Shown: positions 54,567 through 63,130, counted from the stretch's first letter. The stretch: DNA of 64,000 nucleotides from an uncultured delta proteobacterium (GCA_963767925.1 CAVYGB010000002.1:160001-224000), one strand, 5' to 3'. The notes: generated by a model not told the origin, from the letters alone. Made by a program: numbers and translations.

Positions 54567-56825
54567 ATGAGAGCGCGAACCCGATCGAGCAGCCTGGTGA
54601 CCTTTGCAGCGGCGGGAGCCGCGCTCGCGCTCGTCGGAGCGGCGGGGTGTGGCGACGCCGGTCCCGCCTCCGATCCGGGCGCCGCCAGGGGCCTCGAGAT
54701 GGGCGCCCCGCTCACCGGCGACCCGCCCGGCTACGGCGGCGGCGGCCCTGCAGCCGCCGTGAGCGCCGAGTACCAGTTCCCCGCCACCATCGATCCCGAG
54801 GTGCAGGGCGACCGCTACACCGAGCTGTGGGCCCGCGTCTACCGCCCCGAGCAGCTCGACCCCCTCCGGCCCCACCCGCTGCTCGTGTTCCTGCACGGCA
54901 ACCACGCCACCTGTGGCCACGGGGAGAACCCGCGCATCGACAACGATCGCACCTACACCTTCTCCGGCACCTGCCCGCCCGGCTACGTCGTGGCGCCGAG
55001 CCACGCCGGCTACGAATACGCCGCCACCGAGCTCGCCGCCCTCGGGTACGTCGTCGTGTCGATCAACGCCAACCGGGGCATCAACGCCGCCCCGGGCGTG
55101 CCCGGAGACGCCGGGCTCAACCTCGCGCGCGGGCGGCTCATCCTCAAGCACCTCGCCCTGCTCAGCCGCTGGAACCGCGGCCTCGAGGCCACCCCCGCCT
55201 CCCTCGGCGTCAACCTGGCGGGCCGGCTCGACTTCGCCAACGTCGGGCTGATGGGCCACTCGCGCGGGGGCGAGGGGGCGCGCGCCGCCTACAACCAGTA
55301 CCGCGATCCGGACAGCCTCTGGCCCCTCCGCATCGCCGACCCGGTCACCATCCGCGGCATCTTCGAGATCGGCCCGGTCGATGGCCAGTCCGCGCGCACG
55401 CTCGACGCCAGCGGCGCCCGCTGGACCGTGCTGCTGCCGATGTGCGACGGGGACGTGTCGAACCTGTCGGGCGTGCGCCCCTTCGATCGGATGATGCGGG
55501 CCGCGGGTGAGCAGCCGCCCCGGTTCAAGGCGACGTTCACCGTGTGGGGCACCAATCACAACTACTTCAACACCGAGTGGCAGCTCTCCGATTCGAGCGG
55601 CTGCACCGGGCACCTGCCGCTGTTCACGGAGGGGCCGGGCGTGATCGGCTCGGCGCCCCAGCGCGAGACCGCGCGCGTGGCGCTCACCAGCTTCTTTCGC
55701 GCCGCCGTCGGCACCCAGCGCCAGCCCGACCAGGCGCAGCTCTTCAACCCGCTCTACCCGCTGCCCCGGTCCCTCACCCGCATCACCCGGATCGAGCGGG
55801 GGTACACCGTCTCCTCGGATCCGCGGGTGAGCGTGCTCCTCGAGGACTTCGCCAAACCGACCGGCACCGGCCGCTCCGGCCTGCCCACCACCACGAGCGA
55901 GGTGATCGTCGCGCACCAGGCGCTGCCCGAGCATGACAGCAGCCACCGGGGCGCGCGGTTGACCTGGACCGCGGCGGGAGGCGGGACGTTCTTCCAGACC
56001 AACCTCACCGAGGCGGGCAGCGGCCTGCCGCTGAGCCGCTTCGGCACCCTCGACCTGCGCGTCGACCGGGCGCCCAGCCCGGCCAACCCGCCCGAGCCGA
56101 CCAGCTTCTCGGTCCAGCTCGTGCACGCCGACGGCACCCTCTCCGGGCCGGTGGCGATCGCCCGCTTCGTCAAGCTGATCGGTCCGGTCGGCGGCCCCGC
56201 CAACCGCCTGCACATGATGTTGCAGACCACGCGCATCCCCCTCGGCGAGTTCCCGGGCGCGCAGCTCGACGCCGTCCAGGCGGTCCGCCTCACCTTCGAC
56301 CGCACGGCGACCGGGAGCGTGCTGATCGCCGACCTGCGCGCCTCCGGCTCCTCCGCGCCGGCCTCGCAGGTCGCCGGCAACGGCGACACCGATCCCGACC
56401 CCGACCCGCTGCCCACCGTCGTGGAGGGCGTCGTGAACGAGCCCGACCCCGTCCCCCTCCCCACCGCCTCCGCGACGCCGATCGCCCCCCGCCTGGTGGC
56501 GGGCAACACCGTCCGCGGCATCGGCCCCACCGCCGTGGCCGGCGTGATCGAGGGGATCCAGCCCAGCTGGCTCGACGTCGAGCTCGAGAGCCCCGTCCCC
56601 TTCGCCGAGCAGGCCGAGCTGCTGCTCCTGCAGATCGGCGACACCGAGGTCGAGCTGAGCCGCCACCCCGAGACCGGCAGCGACCAGCGCCTGGTCTTCA
56701 CCCTCACGCCCGAGCAGACCGCCTCCCTGCAAGACGGCGACGACATCACCGTCCGCTACGGCGGCCCCCACTCCCCCCTCGTCTGGACCTTCGGCCCCCT
56801 CGACGCCAGCCTGCTACCCCCATAA
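54567..56825 (+). CDS. Alpha/beta-hydrolase-fold lipoprotein with C-terminal beta-rich domains
   Basis: Lipobox AAGC; FLHGNH, nucleophile elbow GHSRGG, DGDV, NHNYFNTEW. Confidence 0.82.
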   Translation: MRARTRSSSLVTFAAAGAALALVGAAGCGDAGPASDPGAARGLEMGAPLTGDPPGYGGGGPAAAVSAEYQFPATIDPEVQGDRYTELWARVYRPEQLDPLRPHPLLVFLHGNHATCGHGENPRIDNDRTYTFSGTCPPGYVVAPSHAGYEYAATELAALGYVVVSINANRGINAAPGVPGDAGLNLARGRLILKHLALLSRWNRGLEATPASLGVNLAGRLDFANVGLMGHSRGGEGARAAYNQYRDPDSLWPLRIADPVTIRGIFEIGPVDGQSARTLDASGARWTVLLPMCDGDVSNLSGVRPFDRMMRAAGEQPPRFKATFTVWGTNHNYFNTEWQLSDSSGCTGHLPLFTEGPGVIGSAPQRETARVALTSFFRAAVGTQRQPDQAQLFNPLYPLPRSLTRITRIERGYTVSSDPRVSVLLEDFAKPTGTGRSGLPTTTSEVIVAHQALPEHDSSHRGARLTWTAAGGGTFFQTNLTEAGSGLPLSRFGTLDLRVDRAPSPANPPEPTSFSVQLVHADGTLSGPVAIARFVKLIGPVGGPANRLHMMLQTTRIPLGEFPGAQLDAVQAVRLTFDRTATGSVLIADLRASGSSAPASQVAGNGDTDPDPDPLPTVVEGVVNEPDPVPLPTASATPIAPRLVAGNTVRGIGPTAVAGVIEGIQPSWLDVELESPVPFAEQAELLLLQIGDTEVELSRHPETGSDQRLVFTLTPEQTASLQDGDDITVRYGGPHSPLVWTFGPLDASLLPP

Positions 56826-57105
56826 CCGGGTGCGGGCCCGTTCCCGCGCCGGGCGCCGGCGCGGGGTGGCTACCGGGCGTTGCAGGCGCAGCCGGCGGGC
56901 TTGCGGCAGACCTTGCTGCAGGAGATGCCCGAGTCGCCGCAGGCGCAGCCCCCGCAGCCCTGCGCCGACGAAGCACGGGCTGCGCCCCGGCTGCCGTTTT
57001 TGCGCGTCCCTCGGACACCCTCCCAACCTCCCGCTGGGCCTCGGAATCCAGGTAGCGGCTTCGTTTCTTCGTGACGTCGGCGTGGTCGGGTCACCTACTG
57101 GGGTC

Positions 57106-58147
57106 ATGCGCACGCACAGCCGTCTACCGGATCTCGCGATCTTGCTTGTCTGCGTCGTGGGCGGAGGCTGCCAGCCGACCGCCGAGGGGCCCACCAATCC
57201 GGGCGGCGGTGGCGGCTCGGGCGGCGCGGCGACCGGAGCGGCGGGGGCAGCGGGAGGGGCGGCGGCCAGCGGGGGAGGCTCAGGGACCGGCGGCGCGAGC
57301 GGCGCGGGCTCCGGCGGCGGGGGGGCGGCTCGGCGGGCGGGCGGGGGCCTCCGGCGGCGCGGGCGCATCGACCGGCGGTACCGCTGGCGGCGGATCCGGT
57401 GGTGCCGGGGGCAGCCGCGACAGCGGCCGGGCGGACGCGACTGCGGCGAGCGACCGCGGCGCCACGGCGCCCGATGCGCCTCCGTCCGGCAGCGGCGGGC
57501 CCTTGCCGCCGGCGGTTCGCAAGGTCGTCATCCTCCACGATGCCAACGCTGGCGGCAGCGCTACCGATCCATCGCGCAAGACCATGGTGGACATCCTCAA
57601 CGGGATGAAGGACTCGCACGGGATCGTCGTCGAGCTGATGGACAGCCCCACGAAGGCCACCGACCTGATGGACAAGGCGCTGGTGATCGTCGGCCCGAAC
57701 GCGAGCATGTTCGGGGACAACCATCCCGATCCCGGGCTGAAGACGCTCGCCATCCCGATGATCGTCAGCAAGGACGGCAACACCACCGAGATCGGGCTCG
57801 GTCGTGTCGCGGCCACCGATCCCCCCACCTTCGATCGCATCACGATCGTCGAGCCCAATCACCCGCTGGCGGCCGGGCTCCCGGCGGGCAACCTGGTCGT
57901 GATGACGACCCCGAACCGCCAGCGGATGATCACCTTCACGGGGCTCGGCCCGGACGCCATCAAGATCGCCACCAGCCCCCAGGGCGCAAACGCCTTTTCT
58001 CTGATCGCCTACGAGAAGGGCGGCGACATGGGCGCCGGCCTCAAGGCCCCCGCCCGCCGCGTGGGCTTCTTCTGGCACCGCCCGGCGGCCGTCAACGCCC
58101 AGGGCACCAAGCTGTTCCAGGCCGCCGTCGACTGGGCCCTCCGCTAG
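57106..58147 (+). pseudogene. Gly-rich lipoprotein, frameshift in G runs at ~57319-57348 (possibly a sequencing error)
   Basis: Lipobox GGGC in one frame; globular C-terminal domain (..HPLAAGL..ARRVGFF..LFQAAVDWA) in another. Confidence 0.65.
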
Positions 58148-58272: not shown

Positions 58273-61200
58273 ATGAGCGTCGATAACCCCACGATTCATC
58301 CCGAGGAGCTGCTCGCACATGCGGCCTGGCTGCAACGGCTGGCCGCGCGGCTGGTGGGGTCCACGGCTGCGGCCGAGGACCTCGTCCAGGACACCTACGT
58401 CGCGGCGTTGAAGTCGCCGCCCCACGGCGATCGATCGCCACGGCCCTGGCTGGCCCAGGTGCTGCGCAACCTGGTGCGCAACCGGGCGCGCGGCGATGGC
58501 CGCTCGGCGGCGCGGGTCCGGCGCGCCTCGGCGGGCGAGGCGAACAGCCTTCCCAGCGCAGAGGATCTGCTCACCCAGCACGAAGCGCGGCGGCTGGTCG
58601 CCGAGCTGGTCTCGCGGCTCGAGGAACCCTACCGATCGACGGTGCTGCTCTGTTACGGGCAGGGGCTGACGCCGGCAGCGGTGGCGACAAAGCAGGGGAT
58701 CCCCGCGGGCACCGTGCGCTGGCGGCTGAAGCGGGGGCTCGACGATCTGCGATCTTCCCTCGATGCGCGCTACGACGGGGATCGCCGGGCCTGGTCGGCC
58801 GCGCTGGCTCCGCTGGCCGCGGGCGCCGCGCAGCTCGGCGGCGCCGTCCCGGTGACCGCTGGGCTCAAGCTCGCGGTCGTGGTGCTCGCCGCTGCCGGCT
58901 TCGGCCTGTGGCTGGGCACGCGCTCGGAAAGCACGGAGAGCATCCCGGAGGGCGCGGTCACCGCGCGCGCCGCCGCCAACCTCGCCCCCTTCCAGGCCGG
59001 CGCCGAGCGCGGGCCCGCGCCGCCCGCCCCCGCCGGTGGGCCGCAGGGACAAGGGCCACAGGGCGGACCGCAGGCGCTCCTCGCCGTGGCGGCGGCGCCC
59101 GCCCAGCCGGGCGGCGGCGCCGGGGGGCCACCCGTCCCGCCGGCCGAGGCGATCAAGAAGGCCATGGAGGTCGGCAACGCGCCGGTCAAGGGGGACCCCA
59201 AGGCGCCGGTCACGATCGTGGCCTTCAGCGAGTTCCAGTGCCCCTTCTGCGCGCGGGTACAGCCGGTGCTGGCGGAGCTCATGACGAGCTACCCCAAGGA
59301 GGTACGGCTGGTCTTCAAGAACCTGCCGCTCCCGTTCCACGAGCACGCCAAGCTCGCCGCCGAGGCGGGCCTGGCCGCCAACGAGCAGGGCAAGTTCTGG
59401 GAGATGCACGATCGCCTGTTCGCGAACCAGGACGCGCTCGATCCGGTCGCGCTCGTCGCGCACGCCGAGGCCATCGGGCTCGACGTGGCTCGCTTCCGCA
59501 AGGCGCTCGACGAGAAGCGCTTCCTGGCCGCGGTCGAGGAGGACATGCGGGTGGCCAAGGCGGCCGGCCTTGACGGGACCCCGTCGTTTCTCGTCAACGG
59601 CAAGCCGATCGTGGGCGCCCAGCCGCTGGGGGCCTTCAAGAGCGCCGTCGACGGGGCGCTCGCCCGGGCGAAGGGCCTGCCCGAGCCGCCGCCGCCAGCC
59701 CAGGTCGGGTGGCCCCCGCCGACCCCGCCCAATTCGCCCCCCGCCGATCCGGCCGCCCTGCGCGCCGCCGTCGAGTCGGCCACCGCCCCCTCGAAGGGCG
59801 CCCCCCGGGCACCCGTGACGATCGTGCTGTTCTCGGAGTTCGAGTGCCCGTTCTGCGCGAAGATCGTGCCGACCATGAACGAGCTCCTGGCGGCCTTCCC
59901 GGACGAGGTGCGCCTGGTGTGGCGAAACCTGCCGCTGCCCTTCCACCAGAACGCCGCCCCGGCGGCAGAGGCCGCGCTCGCCGCCCACGAGCAGGGCAAG
60001 TTCTGGCCCATGCACGATCGCCTCTTCGCCCACCAGCAGGAGCTGGGGCCGGGGGCGCTCGAGGCGCACGCCAAGGCGGTCGGGCTCGACCTCGACCGCT
60101 TCCGCGCCGCGATCAAGGACCGGCGCTTTCGCAAGGTGGTCGAGGCGGACCTGCAAGTCGCCCAGGCGCACGGGATCCACGGGACCCCAACCGGGGTGAT
60201 CAATGGACGGATCCTCGCGGGCGCCCAGCCCCTCGAGCGCTGGAAGACCTCCGTCGACCGCGAGCTGCGACGGGCGCGCGGCCTTCCGGTGGTCGAGGAG
60301 CCGGCGCCGGTACGAGGGGTGCCGCCCACCGAGCGGCCACGCCTGGACGTTCTCCGGGGCCAGTGGCCCCCGCCCCGCCTGGCTCTGCCCGACGAGGTGC
60401 TCGGCGAGCGCCTGCGCGTCCCCTTCCCCACCGGCGACGCCCCCTCCCTCGGTCCCGGTCGGGCAGTGGTCGAGGTGCTCTACTTCAACGACTACGCATG
60501 CCGGGGGTGCGGCCTCGGCAAGGTCATCGTCGACGGCTTGCGGGCCAGCTACGGCAAGCACCTGCGGATCGTGGCTCGCCCGGTGCCTTACGCGTCCTCC
60601 AGCAGCCCCGGGGCCCAGCAGGTGGCCGAGGCGGCCTGGGCGGCCCACGCCCAGGGCAAGTTCTGGGCCATGCACGACAAGATGTTCAGCGGCGGTTTCG
60701 AGATGGATCGGGCCACCCTGGAGCGTTACGCCGCCGAGATCGGGCTCGACGTCGACGAGCTCAAGGCCGCCCTCGACGATGGCCGCTTCCGGAGCAAGGT
60801 GAAAGAGGACGTCGAGCTGATCAGCAGCGCGGGTCTGCGGGGCCGGCCCCTGTTCGTCGTCAATGGCCGTCGCGCCGATGGCACATCTGCGCTGGTGCAG
60901 CTCGTGGAGGCGGCGCTCACGAAGGCGGGGATCAAGCCCCCGGTCCTCGCGCCAGCGCCCGGCAGGCCGCCAGGATCGAACGCCGTTGTGATGCAGCGGC
61001 TGTCGGTGCCGCAGCAGTTCCACCTGGAGAAGCGCGACGAGGGCTGGGCCGCCACCGTCGAGAAGGAGGTCGGCCCGCTCGTCGAGCGCGACCTGCGCGC
61101 GCTGGACCCGCGCGCCAGCGCCAGGCTCGAGTGCCGGACCAGCCTGTGCCGGCTGAGCTTCCGATCGGAAAAGGGGCAACCCGCCCTCACCGCGTTCGCC

Positions 61201-61434
61201 CGCCAGGTGTACAAGGCCGACCTGCTCGCCGGGGCGCCGGCGGGCCAGGCCCAGGCGTTCCTCGTGGTGGGCGAGCAGCGGCAGGGGGTGGCGCCAACCA
61301 CCGGGGTGGCGCCGACCACCGAGGAGAGCATCGCGCGCCTGCGCTCGCGCCGATCGACCCAGCTCTTCTCGCTGCGCACCGGCCGGCTGGCGCCCGATCC
61401 CGACCTCCCCCTGAGCAAGCTCCCTCCGGAGTGA
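58273..61434 (+). CDS. ECF sigma-70 factor fused via a TM helix to three DsbA/thioredoxin-like domains (1053 aa)
   Basis: RBS ggagg. Sigma2 AEDLVQDT..WL..V.RN; sigma4 L.E.YR..V.L..GIP.GTVR.RL.RG; TM; FSEFQCPFC, FSEFECPFC, FNDYACRGC, each followed by QGKFW.MHD. Confidence 0.9.
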   Translation: MSVDNPTIHPEELLAHAAWLQRLAARLVGSTAAAEDLVQDTYVAALKSPPHGDRSPRPWLAQVLRNLVRNRARGDGRSAARVRRASAGEANSLPSAEDLLTQHEARRLVAELVSRLEEPYRSTVLLCYGQGLTPAAVATKQGIPAGTVRWRLKRGLDDLRSSLDARYDGDRRAWSAALAPLAAGAAQLGGAVPVTAGLKLAVVVLAAAGFGLWLGTRSESTESIPEGAVTARAAANLAPFQAGAERGPAPPAPAGGPQGQGPQGGPQALLAVAAAPAQPGGGAGGPPVPPAEAIKKAMEVGNAPVKGDPKAPVTIVAFSEFQCPFCARVQPVLAELMTSYPKEVRLVFKNLPLPFHEHAKLAAEAGLAANEQGKFWEMHDRLFANQDALDPVALVAHAEAIGLDVARFRKALDEKRFLAAVEEDMRVAKAAGLDGTPSFLVNGKPIVGAQPLGAFKSAVDGALARAKGLPEPPPPAQVGWPPPTPPNSPPADPAALRAAVESATAPSKGAPRAPVTIVLFSEFECPFCAKIVPTMNELLAAFPDEVRLVWRNLPLPFHQNAAPAAEAALAAHEQGKFWPMHDRLFAHQQELGPGALEAHAKAVGLDLDRFRAAIKDRRFRKVVEADLQVAQAHGIHGTPTGVINGRILAGAQPLERWKTSVDRELRRARGLPVVEEPAPVRGVPPTERPRLDVLRGQWPPPRLALPDEVLGERLRVPFPTGDAPSLGPGRAVVEVLYFNDYACRGCGLGKVIVDGLRASYGKHLRIVARPVPYASSSSPGAQQVAEAAWAAHAQGKFWAMHDKMFSGGFEMDRATLERYAAEIGLDVDELKAALDDGRFRSKVKEDVELISSAGLRGRPLFVVNGRRADGTSALVQLVEAALTKAGIKPPVLAPAPGRPPGSNAVVMQRLSVPQQFHLEKRDEGWAATVEKEVGPLVERDLRALDPRASARLECRTSLCRLSFRSEKGQPALTAFARQVYKADLLAGAPAGQAQAFLVVGEQRQGVAPTTGVAPTTEESIARLRSRRSTQLFSLRTGRLAPDPDLPLSKLPPE

Positions 61435-61539
61435 CCACCCCCGAGCCGCCCCGCCCCGCGCCCCTGATTCTGCGGGGGCTACCGGGGCCGGGCGGGTGGG
61501 TTCGGCCCGGGGCCGCGCGCGGGTGAAGTAAACTTGGCC

Positions 61540-62034
61540 ATGGACAGCGCAGGTGCAGCCTCCCCGCCGTCAGGGCGGGCCAGGCTGAGGAAGGTTGTGA
61601 AGGTCGGCCTGGTCCTCGCAGTGGCGATCGGGATCGCCCTGCAGCTCGTCCCGGTCGAGGGGATCGGCAGGAACCCGCCGCAGCGGTACAAGGTCGAGGC
61701 GCCGCCGGAGGTGGAGCGGATCCTCCGGGAGTCCTGCTTCGACTGCCACTCCAACGAGACCCAGTGGCCGTTTTACGCCCGCATCGCCCCCGGTTCGTGG
61801 CTGATGGCGCGCGATGTGCGGAAGGGTCGCAGCCGCATGAACTTCTCCGAGTGGGGCGATACCGACGAGGAAGAACGCGCCATCGATCGCCAGAACGCCT
61901 GGGACGAGATCGAATCCGGTGACATGCCCCCCTGGTTCTACATCCCCATGAACCCCGCCCGCCGCCTCAGCGCCGAGGAGAAGGCCACCCTGAAAGCCTG
62001 GCTCCTCGAAAAGAAACCAGCCGCCAAGCCCTGA
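61540..62034 (+). CDS. Haem-binding domain (Haem_bd) c-type cytochrome
   Basis: Signal/TM; SCFDCHSN.T.WP.Y..IAP.SW, NFSEW, MPP..Y. Confidence 0.9.
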   Translation: MDSAGAASPPSGRARLRKVVKVGLVLAVAIGIALQLVPVEGIGRNPPQRYKVEAPPEVERILRESCFDCHSNETQWPFYARIAPGSWLMARDVRKGRSRMNFSEWGDTDEEERAIDRQNAWDEIESGDMPPWFYIPMNPARRLSAEEKATLKAWLLEKKPAAKP

Positions 62035-62191: not shown

Positions 62192-62569
62192 CTACCCCGC
62201 CTTCTTGGCCAGCGCCGGCTTGGTCAGCGCCGGCTTGGCCAGCGCCTTCTTGGCCAGCGCCGGCTTGGCCAGCGCCTTCTTGGCCAGCGCCGGCTTGGCC
62301 AGCGGCCGCTTCGCCGGCGGCAGCCCCAGCTTCCTGCGCACCTCCGCCTCGCTGTGCCGGGGACGCTTGGACTTGCGCACCTTCTCGATCATCTCCCAGA
62401 ACTCGGGCCGGCCCTCGATCACGACCGAGCCGATGTCGACCCGACCCTCCACGCCAAGCAGCATCGCCACGGGTTTGCCGTGTCGAGTGAGCCAGACCGG
62501 CTCGGCTTGCGCCTGCTCGACCAGGTCAGCCAGCTTTGCGCGGGCCTCCTGCATGCTGATGCTCTTCAT
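62192..62569 (-). CDS. Phd/YefM-family antitoxin with basic repetitive tail
   Basis: MKSIS..EARAKL..LVE.A..EPV.LTRHGKPVA.L; ATGA overlap with the toxin. Confidence 0.88.
   Translation of the reverse strand: MKSISMQEARAKLADLVEQAQAEPVWLTRHGKPVAMLLGVEGRVDIGSVVIEGRPEFWEMIEKVRKSKRPRHSEAEVRRKLGLPPAKRPLAKPALAKKALAKPALAKKALAKPALTKPALAKKAG
62201..62305 (-). repeat. 15-bp in-frame tandem repeat x7 (ALAKK/ALAKP)
   Basis: Units c(tt/gg)cttggccagcgc. Confidence 0.92.
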
Positions 62570-62889
62570 TGGCTCTCCTCCTCTATTTTCGTGGCCGCCG
62601 CCATGGCGTCAGCCAGGGTCAACGTCCCCTTGTGGACGACCCGGATGATGAGCACCAGCGTCTCGGGCACGATGTCGTACAGCACGCCGAAGGCGCCGAC
62701 CTGCAGCTCCCAGGCAGCGCTGACGGACAGATCGGGCGACGGCACGACCGGCTTGCGGTGCTTGGTAATCACCATCGGTTGATAGGTCAGGTTCTTGCTA
62801 ATGGCGTCCGCGATCCGGGCTCGGTCGAACGCACGCAGCGCCAGCAGGTCGGCCAAAGCCTCGTCCGAGTACTGAATCGCGAAGGGCAT
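62566..62889 (-). CDS. RelE/ParE-family toxin
   Basis: F.IQYS.EA..DL..L, I..AI...L..QP, WELQVG.F.VLYDI. Confidence 0.8.
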
Positions 62890-62908
62890 GGACCAACTGT
62901 CTACGGAT

Positions 62909-62937
62909 ATTCTGTACCGTAAAAAGTACAGAATCAA
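62909..62937 (-). promoter_or_regulatory. TA promoter (TTGATT-N17-CAGAAT) overlapped by operator ATTCTGTAC-N8-GTACAGAAT
   Basis: Perfect 9-bp inverted repeat at 62909-62934, 19 bp upstream of the toxin ATG. Confidence 0.75.
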
Positions 62938-63130
62938 GCGATGGTGCCGCGGCATCCCGTTGACCGGCCACCTGTGGCGTCCGGCGCTCCACTGGTGCTT
63001 TCGACGGATTCAGGGGTCAGACGGGCTCGCAATCGCGGGCCTTGGGGGGCCGGGATGTGGCGCGGAGCTTCGCGGGCGGGCAGCCTGTGGATGGGGGGCA
63101 GGCGGGCGGGGCCGGGAAGGAGGGGTTGCG

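Follow-up and report, generated by a model that had tools for sequence, protein, structure and literature searches.

The 64,000-nucleotide window analysed here, a stretch of DNA from an uncultured delta proteobacterium (CAVYGB010000002.1:160001-224000), contains on its plus strand, at positions 58273-61434, a gene for a protein of 1053 residues (P0001). This protein combines in a single chain an extracytoplasmic function (ECF) sigma factor, one transmembrane (TM) helix, three DsbA-like domains (D1 to D3) and a C-terminal domain (CTD). Sequence comparison indicates that P0001 is one branch of a large clade of membrane-tethered ECF sigma factors that lack an anti-sigma domain. We give about even chances to the reading that it works as a one-chain transmembrane sensor of the periplasmic thiol or folding state, from which the sigma part would be released by proteolysis.

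The translation of the open reading frame (ORF) contains no internal stop, and the initial annotation, which had described an uninterrupted frame from the sigma part into the DsbA part, was right on this point. A ribosome-binding site (AGGGAGGG) is found 5 nt ahead of the ATG at 58273 and the homologues start at a matching position; therefore, this ATG is the real start. The 1534-residue frame that opens at 56830 is the usual read-through of high-G+C DNA (73% G+C) and does not mark the gene start. The parts named previously, that is sigma2 and sigma4, one helix, a Pro-rich linker, the motifs CPFC, CPFC and CRGC and the final ECRTSLC (residues 953-959, in the CTD), were all located (Table 1). 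Pfam matches were obtained for Sigma70_r2, Sigma70_r4_2 and three stretches of Thioredoxin_4/DSBA, and for no other sigma region; PF13462 (228.9 bits) and PF01323 (183.7 bits), each over three stretches, were above the gathering score. An NCBIfam model for the (seleno)lipoprotein Rcas_1661 gave 255.9 bits summed over the three repeats, and a selenoprotein was ruled out considering that the ORF has no in-frame TGA.

With sigma2 and sigma4 only, and neither sigma3 nor sigma1, P0001 belongs to the ECF (group 4) sigma factors. The general ECF model TIGR02937 was matched with 56.6 bits (cut-off 42.9) and no specific sigma subfamily passed. The structure matches of residues 15-163 were ECF sigma factors, the nearest solved chain being SigL of M. 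tuberculosis (6dv9_F, E 1e-13). The stretch from sigma4 to the TM helix is about 35 residues long. No Pfam family, and hence no anti-sigma family, matched residues 161-316, even at E <= 10, and no anti-sigma family was found among the flanking ORFs scanned in the window, in line with the earlier statement that no anti-sigma gene is adjacent. The juxtamembrane segment is strongly conserved. In 20 aligned homologues W174 and L178 are invariant, D164, R166, G168, D170, R171 and A173 are kept in at least 90%, and P180-L181 also count among the invariant or near-invariant positions; in a wider set of 55 sequences, which includes other ectodomain types, W174 and L178 remain at 90% conservation or more.

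AlphaFold2 (AF2) placed a helix at residues 171-191, with a per-residue confidence (pLDDT) of 95 dropping to 79, and the TM helix at 198-215. The latter lies in the sole hydrophobic segment of the protein: when hydropathy was computed as the Kyte-Doolittle mean over 19-residue windows (KD19, cut-off 1.6), values above 1.6 were obtained only for windows beginning at residues 187-198, the next best elsewhere being 1.32. The hydrophobic stretch singled out earlier, LAVVVLAAAGFGLWL, corresponds to residues 200-214, inside this helix. The linker that follows (residues 217-300) is made of 15 Pro, 14 Gly and 21 Ala for 50 of its 84 residues (60%), varies in length and aligns poorly among homologues. 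Considering that a sigma factor must be cytoplasmic, that disulfide-active DsbA folds work outside the cytoplasm and that there is a single helix, an N-in/C-out topology is predicted for P0001. The only cysteine on the predicted cytoplasmic side is C127 in sigma4 (LLCY; window 58651-58653), a residue shared by 90% or more of the 20 DsbA-type homologues.

Homologues were searched for among 5.8 billion proteins. Of the 120 matches listed, twenty are chains of 820-1060 residues with both Sigma70_r2 and Thioredoxin_4/DSBA; they show an identity of 42-65% and were assembled from JGI, ENA, NCBI and Logan data. With three more from subsequent searches (P0124, P0129 and P0247), at least 23 other fused proteins are available (P0003-P0012, P0014, P0016, P0024, P0025, P0028, P0043, P0056, P0064, P0069, P0093, P0124, P0129 and P0247). 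Homologues encoded always by separate genes, which according to the initial annotation would speak against the fusion, were not what these searches returned. The existence of at least 23 other public proteins with the same architecture indicates, at the level of sequence, that the sigma-DsbA fusion is a real gene and not an artefact of assembly or gene calling. The 20 aligned homologues fall into two subtypes of ten each, one with three DsbA domains and one with two, D2 being missing; the subtypes are interleaved on the sigma tree, which means that gain or loss of D2 occurred repeatedly. Strict or almost strict conservation across the 20 extends over the sigma core, the juxtamembrane motif, the cis-Pro of D1, W698 and P700 of the WPPPR segment (both invariant) and, in the CTD, R921, D940, C954, C959, R1027, R1035, G1037 and R1038.

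Other searches mapped the distribution of the family. The genome of the window (G000; 9.3 Mb, 13 contigs, 84% complete) was compared with that of another species of the same genus (G001), which contains two fused forms, a truncated three-DsbA orthologue on contig C372 and an 820-residue two-DsbA form on contig C496 that appears to be P0093. The family, which here equals the order, was covered by 89 genomes, and with the query used, in a stricter first look, neither the fused form nor a strong match to the CTD was found outside these two genomes; likewise, when 401 sampled genomes of the class were searched with the query used, CTD matches at E <= 1e-8 were confined to the same two. A profile search of genome contigs with the homologue alignment returned at least 72 loci, all encoding DsbA-only proteins, in which no match reached further towards the N-terminus than residue 167, and a metagenome search with residues 690-1053 returned 41 loci, all matching the D3 part only.

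The sigma and membrane parts of P0001 are shared by a much wider set of proteins. A search with residues 1-235 among proteins of 579-1843 residues gave 197 matches at E <= 1e-10. Among the 120 long relatives listed, 94 have CarboxypepD_reg domains (many together with PDZ), 18 are of the DsbA type and 8 show sigma domains only. The named long relatives of the sigma module are from Myxococcales, Polyangia, Kofleriaceae and Planctomycetota metagenome-assembled genomes (MAGs), the nearest to P0001 being Polyangia and Myxococcales MAGs. The genome of the window itself holds at least eight intact paralogues with the same juxtamembrane motif, one TM helix and other ectodomains (Table 1). In a quick IQ-TREE reconstruction of the sigma core (residues 8-184, 55 sequences), 18 of 20 DsbA-type proteins form one clade (SH-aLRT 97), P0093 and P0064 standing outside it on unresolved branches; therefore, the core tracks the ectodomain. 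The same relation between ECF core and regulatory extension is described in the accessible part of the ECF re-classification (PMC7826278). The variety of ectodomains found on one sigma-TM chassis fits a modular sensor slot. In one of these paralogues the part joined to sigma is a cell-wall synthase fold, a GT51 transglycosylase.

As concerns the DsbA-like domains, D1 matched 3gyk_A (E 3.4e-22) as well as ScsC, BdbD and actinobacterial DsbA chains, and D3 matched 3gyk_A with E 2.5e-12; 4gxz, 4xvw, 6nen, 3eu3 and 4pwo are further solved chains matched by these domains. The CxxC motif and cis-Pro loop read CPFC and GTP in both D1 and D2, and CRGC and GRP in D3. Among the homologues the cis-Pro of D1 is kept in 20/20, and the corresponding position of D3 is Pro in 12/20. 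Relatives without a sigma part are common in Myxococcota; they string together three or four Thioredoxin_4 domains and share 38-41% identity with the ectodomain. The idea that these tandem-DsbA proteins are anti-sigma factors was rejected, none of the 8 scanned having an anti-sigma domain. The genome of the window contains one DsbB, beside a separate DsbA-like gene, which suggests that routine oxidation is provided for by other genes; a VKOR did not turn up in this 84% complete genome.

The CTD has no Pfam family, the only match at E <= 10 being a chance-level one to MTS_N (E 0.17), and an Atlas search with the CTD gave no usable match. Its AF2 model (pLDDT 90.6, pTM 0.84) shows an alpha/beta fold in which C954 and C959 flank the turn of a beta-hairpin. 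Foldseek found nothing in pdb at E <= 1e-3. The best result of a VIA search was the C-terminal domain of PulL (8a9w_A, root-mean-square deviation 2.3, 69 residues aligned) with a Z of 5.5, a value that, being below 8, may reflect a common arrangement only; weaker matches were EpsL (2w7v_B, Z 4.6), PilO (3jc8, Z 4.4) and XcpY (6ghu_A, Z 4.3), and by the notes of the tool all four lie within background. With a profile built from 11 CTD sequences taken from loci, 1184 cluster representatives were retrieved at E <= 1e-3, of which 340 also passed E <= 1e-10. The 150 best of the 1184 comprise 129 proteins of 115-277 residues with the domain at the C-terminus, 14 of 303-574 residues and 7 of at least 820. 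In two short ones from the genome of the window (L160 and L163) the chain opens with a TM anchor and has no anti-sigma domain. In 12 of the 13 mid-length, sigma-less proteins (303-574 residues) that were scanned, a DSBA/Thioredoxin_4 domain lies just before the CTD; P0247 (821 residues), scanned alongside, has sigma, DsbA and CTD parts. Moreover, two loci of the same genome pair a TM-CTD gene with TM-DsbA genes, with an HTTM membrane protein between them in one case (L162); there, the TM-DsbA protein has two Thioredoxin_4 domains, one with CPPC and then one without cysteines, and the row is flanked by GT87-like membrane proteins. Judging from these sequences, the CTD represents an unannotated family of mostly stand-alone, membrane-anchored proteins that is coupled to DsbA-like folds.

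A complex of D3 (residues 692-893) and CTD (residues 900-1053) was modelled; over three runs the interface score ipSAE had a median of 0.64, whereas the highest value among three controls was 0.00. Of 157 solved complexes 116 attain this mark, and of 215 mismatched pairs 2 do; these counts hold only roughly here, considering that our own alignments were used. At least 80% of the contacts were common to the runs and the pLDDT of the partner was at least 82. The confident contacts connect residues 905-918 and 985-988 of the CTD with residues 697-713, 743-752 (CxxC helix), 857-861 (cis-Pro loop) and 867-873 of D3, that is with the groove in which DsbA-type proteins hold their substrates. Some contact is expected, since both domains are neighbours in one chain. 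The model supports a docking of the CTD on the active-site groove of D3.

On these grounds, the following mechanism may be proposed. The ECF sigma factor would reside in the cytoplasm, anchored to the inner membrane through the TM helix C-terminal to it and without any anti-sigma domain. The periplasmic part would consist of two canonical CPFC domains of the DsbA/ScsC type, followed by a divergent DsbA domain whose groove is filled by the leading segment of the CTD. The tether, possibly aided by the juxtamembrane helix, would keep sigma out of action. Once the ectodomain changes, for instance in redox state, in folding or in the substrate load that it carries, and thereby mirrors the condition of oxidative folding in the periplasm, the chain would become open to a periplasmic protease; an M50 site-2 protease would then cut within the TM helix, and the freed sigma would turn on an envelope or thiol-stress regulon. 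M50 site-2 proteases are encoded at at least four loci of the genome of the window. We also put forward, tentatively and with clearly lower confidence, a more general mode of "tether-only" ECF control, in which there is no anti-sigma domain and an enzyme-like or binding ectodomain of the same chain would gate sigma directly, such as the DsbA folds of P0001 or the GT51 transglycosylase and CarboxypepD_reg-PDZ arrays of its paralogues. In the DsbA branch, the Cys-x4-Cys domain lodged in a degenerate DsbA groove would be a reporter substrate, whose unfolding upon failed disulfide formation would lead to site-1 and site-2 cleavage, making the system a bacterial counterpart of ATF6 or PdeC that gauges the capacity for oxidative folding.

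A number of observations weigh against this mechanism as a whole or against parts of it. The CxxC motif is intact in 14/20 homologues for D1, 7/10 for D2 and 14/20 for D3; at least one is kept in 18/20, the exceptions being P0069 and P0093, which have none. The family as a whole therefore cannot be signalling through thiol exchange by its DsbA domains, and a strictly cysteine-dependent form of the switch put forward in the initial annotation is weakened. In the complex model C954 and C959 are away from the interface with D3. The AF2 model of the N-terminal part resembles neither the free nor the anti-sigma-bound arrangement of ECF sigma factors (TM-score 0.25-0.3), and therefore it allows no inference on an autoinhibited state. 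P0013 (755 residues, on a 240-kb contig) starts at D1 and has no sigma part, perhaps because the gene is split or because its start was called differently. The gene context is not conserved, so that no regulon can be read from it, and the window contains no linked protease gene, a trypsin-like gene being found upstream only at contig C496 of the same-genus genome; this secreted protease is a candidate site-1 protease. The C-x4-C of the CTD is kept in 20/20 homologues, and on the evidence of the alignment this pair is a better candidate for a redox-sensitive element than the CxxC motifs of the DsbA domains.

Different explanations can be given for the same protein. P0001 might be chiefly an enzyme, an anchored poly-DsbA oxidoreductase or isomerase whose sigma part is a feedback reporter freed upon turnover or damage of the enzyme, so that it is replaced by the cell, with no outside sensing. 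The plain Thioredoxin_4 arrays found without sigma in many Myxococcota, the CPFC and cis-Pro kept in both D1 and D2, and the disulfide isomerases and reductases (ScsC, BdbD) among the nearest solved chains would all be expected of such an enzyme. However, several homologues have lost the catalytic cysteines and yet keep the fold, the CTD and sigma, the sigma core co-varies with the ectodomain type, and the same chassis bears non-enzymatic beta-sandwich and PDZ ectodomains; for these reasons we judge the explanation rather unlikely. Sigma might also never be released and recruit RNA polymerase at the membrane, much as transmembrane regulators of the ToxR/CadC type bind DNA in that place, with the ectodomain tuning oligomerisation or conformation. 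Neither an anti-sigma domain nor a linked protease was found in the window, and the best, weak fold matches of the CTD are the periplasmic dimerisation domains of GspL/PilO-type proteins; their Z values, however, fall below the level that is meaningful for the tool, and the stretch between sigma4 and the membrane would probably be tight for a holoenzyme-bound sigma. Moreover, fused sigma factors studied so far reportedly need cleavage, according to the available part of PMC8999054. On balance, a sigma factor working at the membrane seems quite improbable.

The initial annotation had in addition regarded the next gene on the same strand as a possible redox partner or direct target of sigma, in a two-gene redox circuit. 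The neighbour is indeed a CxxCH protein of the Haem_bd family (PF14376, E 1.9e-36, 125.4 bits with a cut-off of 27), with CFDCH at residue 68 and an N-terminal membrane anchor, and only 99 bp separate the two genes. Nevertheless, in neither of the two loci in which synteny could be read, both of the same-genus genome, does a Haem_bd gene accompany the homologue: PadR and a MacB/FtsX permease are encoded downstream of one, and a convergent gene for a phosphoenolpyruvate-utilising enzyme follows the other. The single Haem_bd gene of that genome is on contig C754, away from both sigma-DsbA loci, the genome of the window has a second copy far away, and a G+C-rich hairpin-like stretch occupies the gap. 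The neighbour is probably unrelated to the sigma-DsbA gene, and we regard the circuit as very doubtful. Finally, the fusion could have arisen from misassembly or a frameshift, or the gene could be a decaying pseudogene. A decayed paralogue does exist in the genome of the window (C8:3076196-3078102), which lacks D1 and D2, has TAG stops in its D3/CTD part and carries a sigma part, about 70% identical, that is broken by a frame change; against this, the frame of P0001 is open and its independent fused homologues from several sources have conserved residues in all parts, which makes an artefact hardly credible. The reading that we prefer remains a one-chain sensor, from which sigma would be released by proteolysis.

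Table 1. Position of the features described in the text. Coordinates without a prefix refer to the window; G000 is the genome of the window and G001 the genome of another species of the same genus.
Feature	Position	Strand	Basis or remark
Whole gene, sigma-TM-(DsbA)3-CTD, P0001	58273..61434	+	Uninterrupted ORF; at least 23 homologues with the same architecture
ECF sigma core: sigma2 residues 15-77, sigma4 residues 107-158	58315..58746	+	PF04542, PF08281, TIGR02937
Juxtamembrane helix, residues 164-191, motif D.R.G.DRRAW..AL.PL	58762..58845	+	Conservation, AF2
Single TM helix, residues about 196-216	58858..58920	+	KD19, AF2
Pro/Gly/Ala-rich linker, predicted periplasmic, residues 217-300	58921..59172	+	Composition
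D1, residues 301-462, CPFC 323-326, cis-Pro P437	59173..59658	+	Pfam DSBA 314-459
D2, residues 504-662, CPFC 525-528	59782..60258	+	Pfam Thioredoxin_4 504-662
WPPPR segment 697-719 and divergent D3 720-879, CRGC 743-746	60361..60909	+	Third Pfam stretch
CTD, residues 905-1053, invariant C954 and C959	60985..61431	+	No Pfam family; AF2 model
Haem_bd gene, 166 residues, N-terminal TM, CFDCH	61534..62034	+	PF14376; membership in the system unsupported
Operon-like row: TM-CTD (229 residues), unknown ORF (254 residues), HTTM protein (332 residues), TM-DsbA protein	G000:C2:594675-598760, locus L162:2675-6760	-	
Three CTD-like genes (ECRTLTC, ECRDLVC, TCRGAVC)	G000:C2, locus L165:3177-6516		One overlaps the start of a TM-DsbA-like gene (CRSC)
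Secreted trypsin-like protease gene	G001:C496, locus L154:11089-12606	-	Directly upstream of, and on the same strand as, the 820-residue sigma-DsbA-CTD gene
Paralogue with sigma, TM helix, eight CarboxypepD_reg repeats and C-terminal PDZ, 1166 residues	G000:C1, locus L168:1487-4987	+	
Paralogue fused to GT51 peptidoglycan transglycosylase, 514 residues	G000:C12, locus L159:9629-11173	-	PF00912, E 8.7e-57
Two paralogues with CarboxypepD_reg, 861 and 584 residues	G000		
Four paralogues	G000		No Pfam domain in the ectodomain
Decayed second copy of the DsbA-type gene	G000:C8:3076196-3078102, locus L156	-	Frame change, TAG stops

The surroundings of the gene were also inspected. The two same-strand ORFs upstream, at 54567-56825 (+) and 57071-58147 (+), match no Pfam or NCBIfam family; the second encodes 358 residues, has a Gly/Ala-rich N-terminal half and falls only in Atlas clusters of "hypothetical protein". 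In the 99-bp gap at 61435-61533 there is an inverted repeat rich in G+C (CCCCGC...GCGGGGG); it has no T run but might, in this high-G+C genome, be a terminator. A scan for sigma-70 promoters gave no sites. A putative ECF promoter, derived from about 40 bp common to the upstream regions of the window gene and of the decayed paralogue (GTCGCCAACG ... CGGTGT ... GGAGG), was rejected, as the gene of the same-genus genome does not have it, and inspection by eye of the regions upstream of the sigma and Haem_bd genes showed no common motif beyond G+C-rich words. Downstream, the Haem_bd gene is followed by a ParE/Phd pair on the other strand and by an aquaporin gene. In this pair the ParE-like toxin ORF (62566-62955, -) lies upstream of, and overlaps, the Phd/YefM-like antitoxin ORF (62192-62569, -), a toxin-first order that is unusual, and the tail of the antitoxin is made of lysine/alanine repeats (AKPALAKKAL...).

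Much of bacterial signalling runs through ECF sigma factors, and, to our knowledge, almost all those studied rely on a separate or fused anti-sigma domain. If the proposed sensor reading is correct, P0001 would be a compact device in which a modular periplasmic domain links the state of the envelope, here disulfide-bond formation, directly to transcription. The DsbA branch offers residues that can be mutated, namely three CxxC motifs and one C-x4-C. The CTD family, repeatedly joined to DsbA-like folds, brings an unannotated player into the periplasmic thiol biology of Myxococcota. If P0001 were an anchored enzyme with a vestigial sigma, the interest would be modest.

The initial annotation knew of no characterised sigma-TM-(DsbA)3 protein, and our full-text literature searches likewise brought up no account of one with a sigma-TM-DsbA architecture; the available portions of the text or supplement of PMC7826278, of PMC8999054 and of PMC7671368 do not mention extensions of the DsbA or thioredoxin kind. 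Tethered ECF sigma factors had been placed mainly in Planctomycetes and Actinobacteria. They are not confined to these groups, considering that the ECF re-classification, in its group descriptions, assigns to ECF220 (Polyangiaceae) a variable extension with about one TM helix and no Pfam domain, and to ECF216 (Myxococcales) a one-TM extension, beside the TM-extended ECF57 and ECF01-Gob of Planctomycetes (PMC7826278), and that the genome of the window holds a whole paralogous family. P0001 resembles ECF220 and ECF216 in having a sigma2-sigma4 core followed by an extension with about one TM helix, and in its myxobacterial lineage; the contexts given for ECF216 include a carboxypeptidase-regulatory-like domain, as do the paralogues of P0001. 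Unlike ECF220, its extension has Pfam DsbA domains, a comparison that holds at the level of the group descriptions (PMC7826278).

Among single-chain systems, IutY of Pseudomonas putida (ECF243) and SCO4117 (ECF52) are described as sigma/anti-sigma hybrids activated by proteolysis, and ECF52, ECF53 and IutY as carrying fused anti-sigma domains (PMC8999054, available part). The release of IutY is attributed to Prc and RseP in the corresponding passages of PMC8999054 and PMC5411451. As in IutY and SCO4117, P0001 has sigma, a TM helix and a putative periplasmic sensor in one chain, and SCO4117 has a Pro-rich periplasmic region too; however, the two hybrids are said to carry a FecR-type or zinc-finger anti-sigma domain between sigma4 and the TM helix (PMC8999054), where P0001 has its short juxtamembrane segment and no such domain. 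The ectodomain of P0001 is also of a different kind.

The proteolysis of a membrane-tethered regulator is redox-gated in eukaryotic ATF6. Comparable cases, as far as the accessible text goes, are ToxR of V. cholerae (PMC6242745) and PdeC of E. coli, with its CSS domain (PMC5897775). In all three a periplasmic or luminal Cys pair sets the susceptibility to a site-1 protease, a role that C954 and C959 would fit; they belong, however, to other protein families, depend on DsbA in trans and involve no sigma factor, whereas P0001 has DsbA-like domains in the same chain. With respect to ScsC, BdbD, the actinobacterial DsbA chains and the tandem-DsbA proteins of Myxococcota, D1 to D3 match in sequence, but those proteins have neither sigma nor CTD, and the D3 of the present family is divergent and often lacks CxxC or cis-Pro. 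Thus, ECF sigma factors with TM-containing extensions were already known; a conserved, uncharacterised branch with a DsbA ectodomain, the anti-sigma-less chassis on which it is built and the unannotated CTD family are what P0001 adds to them.

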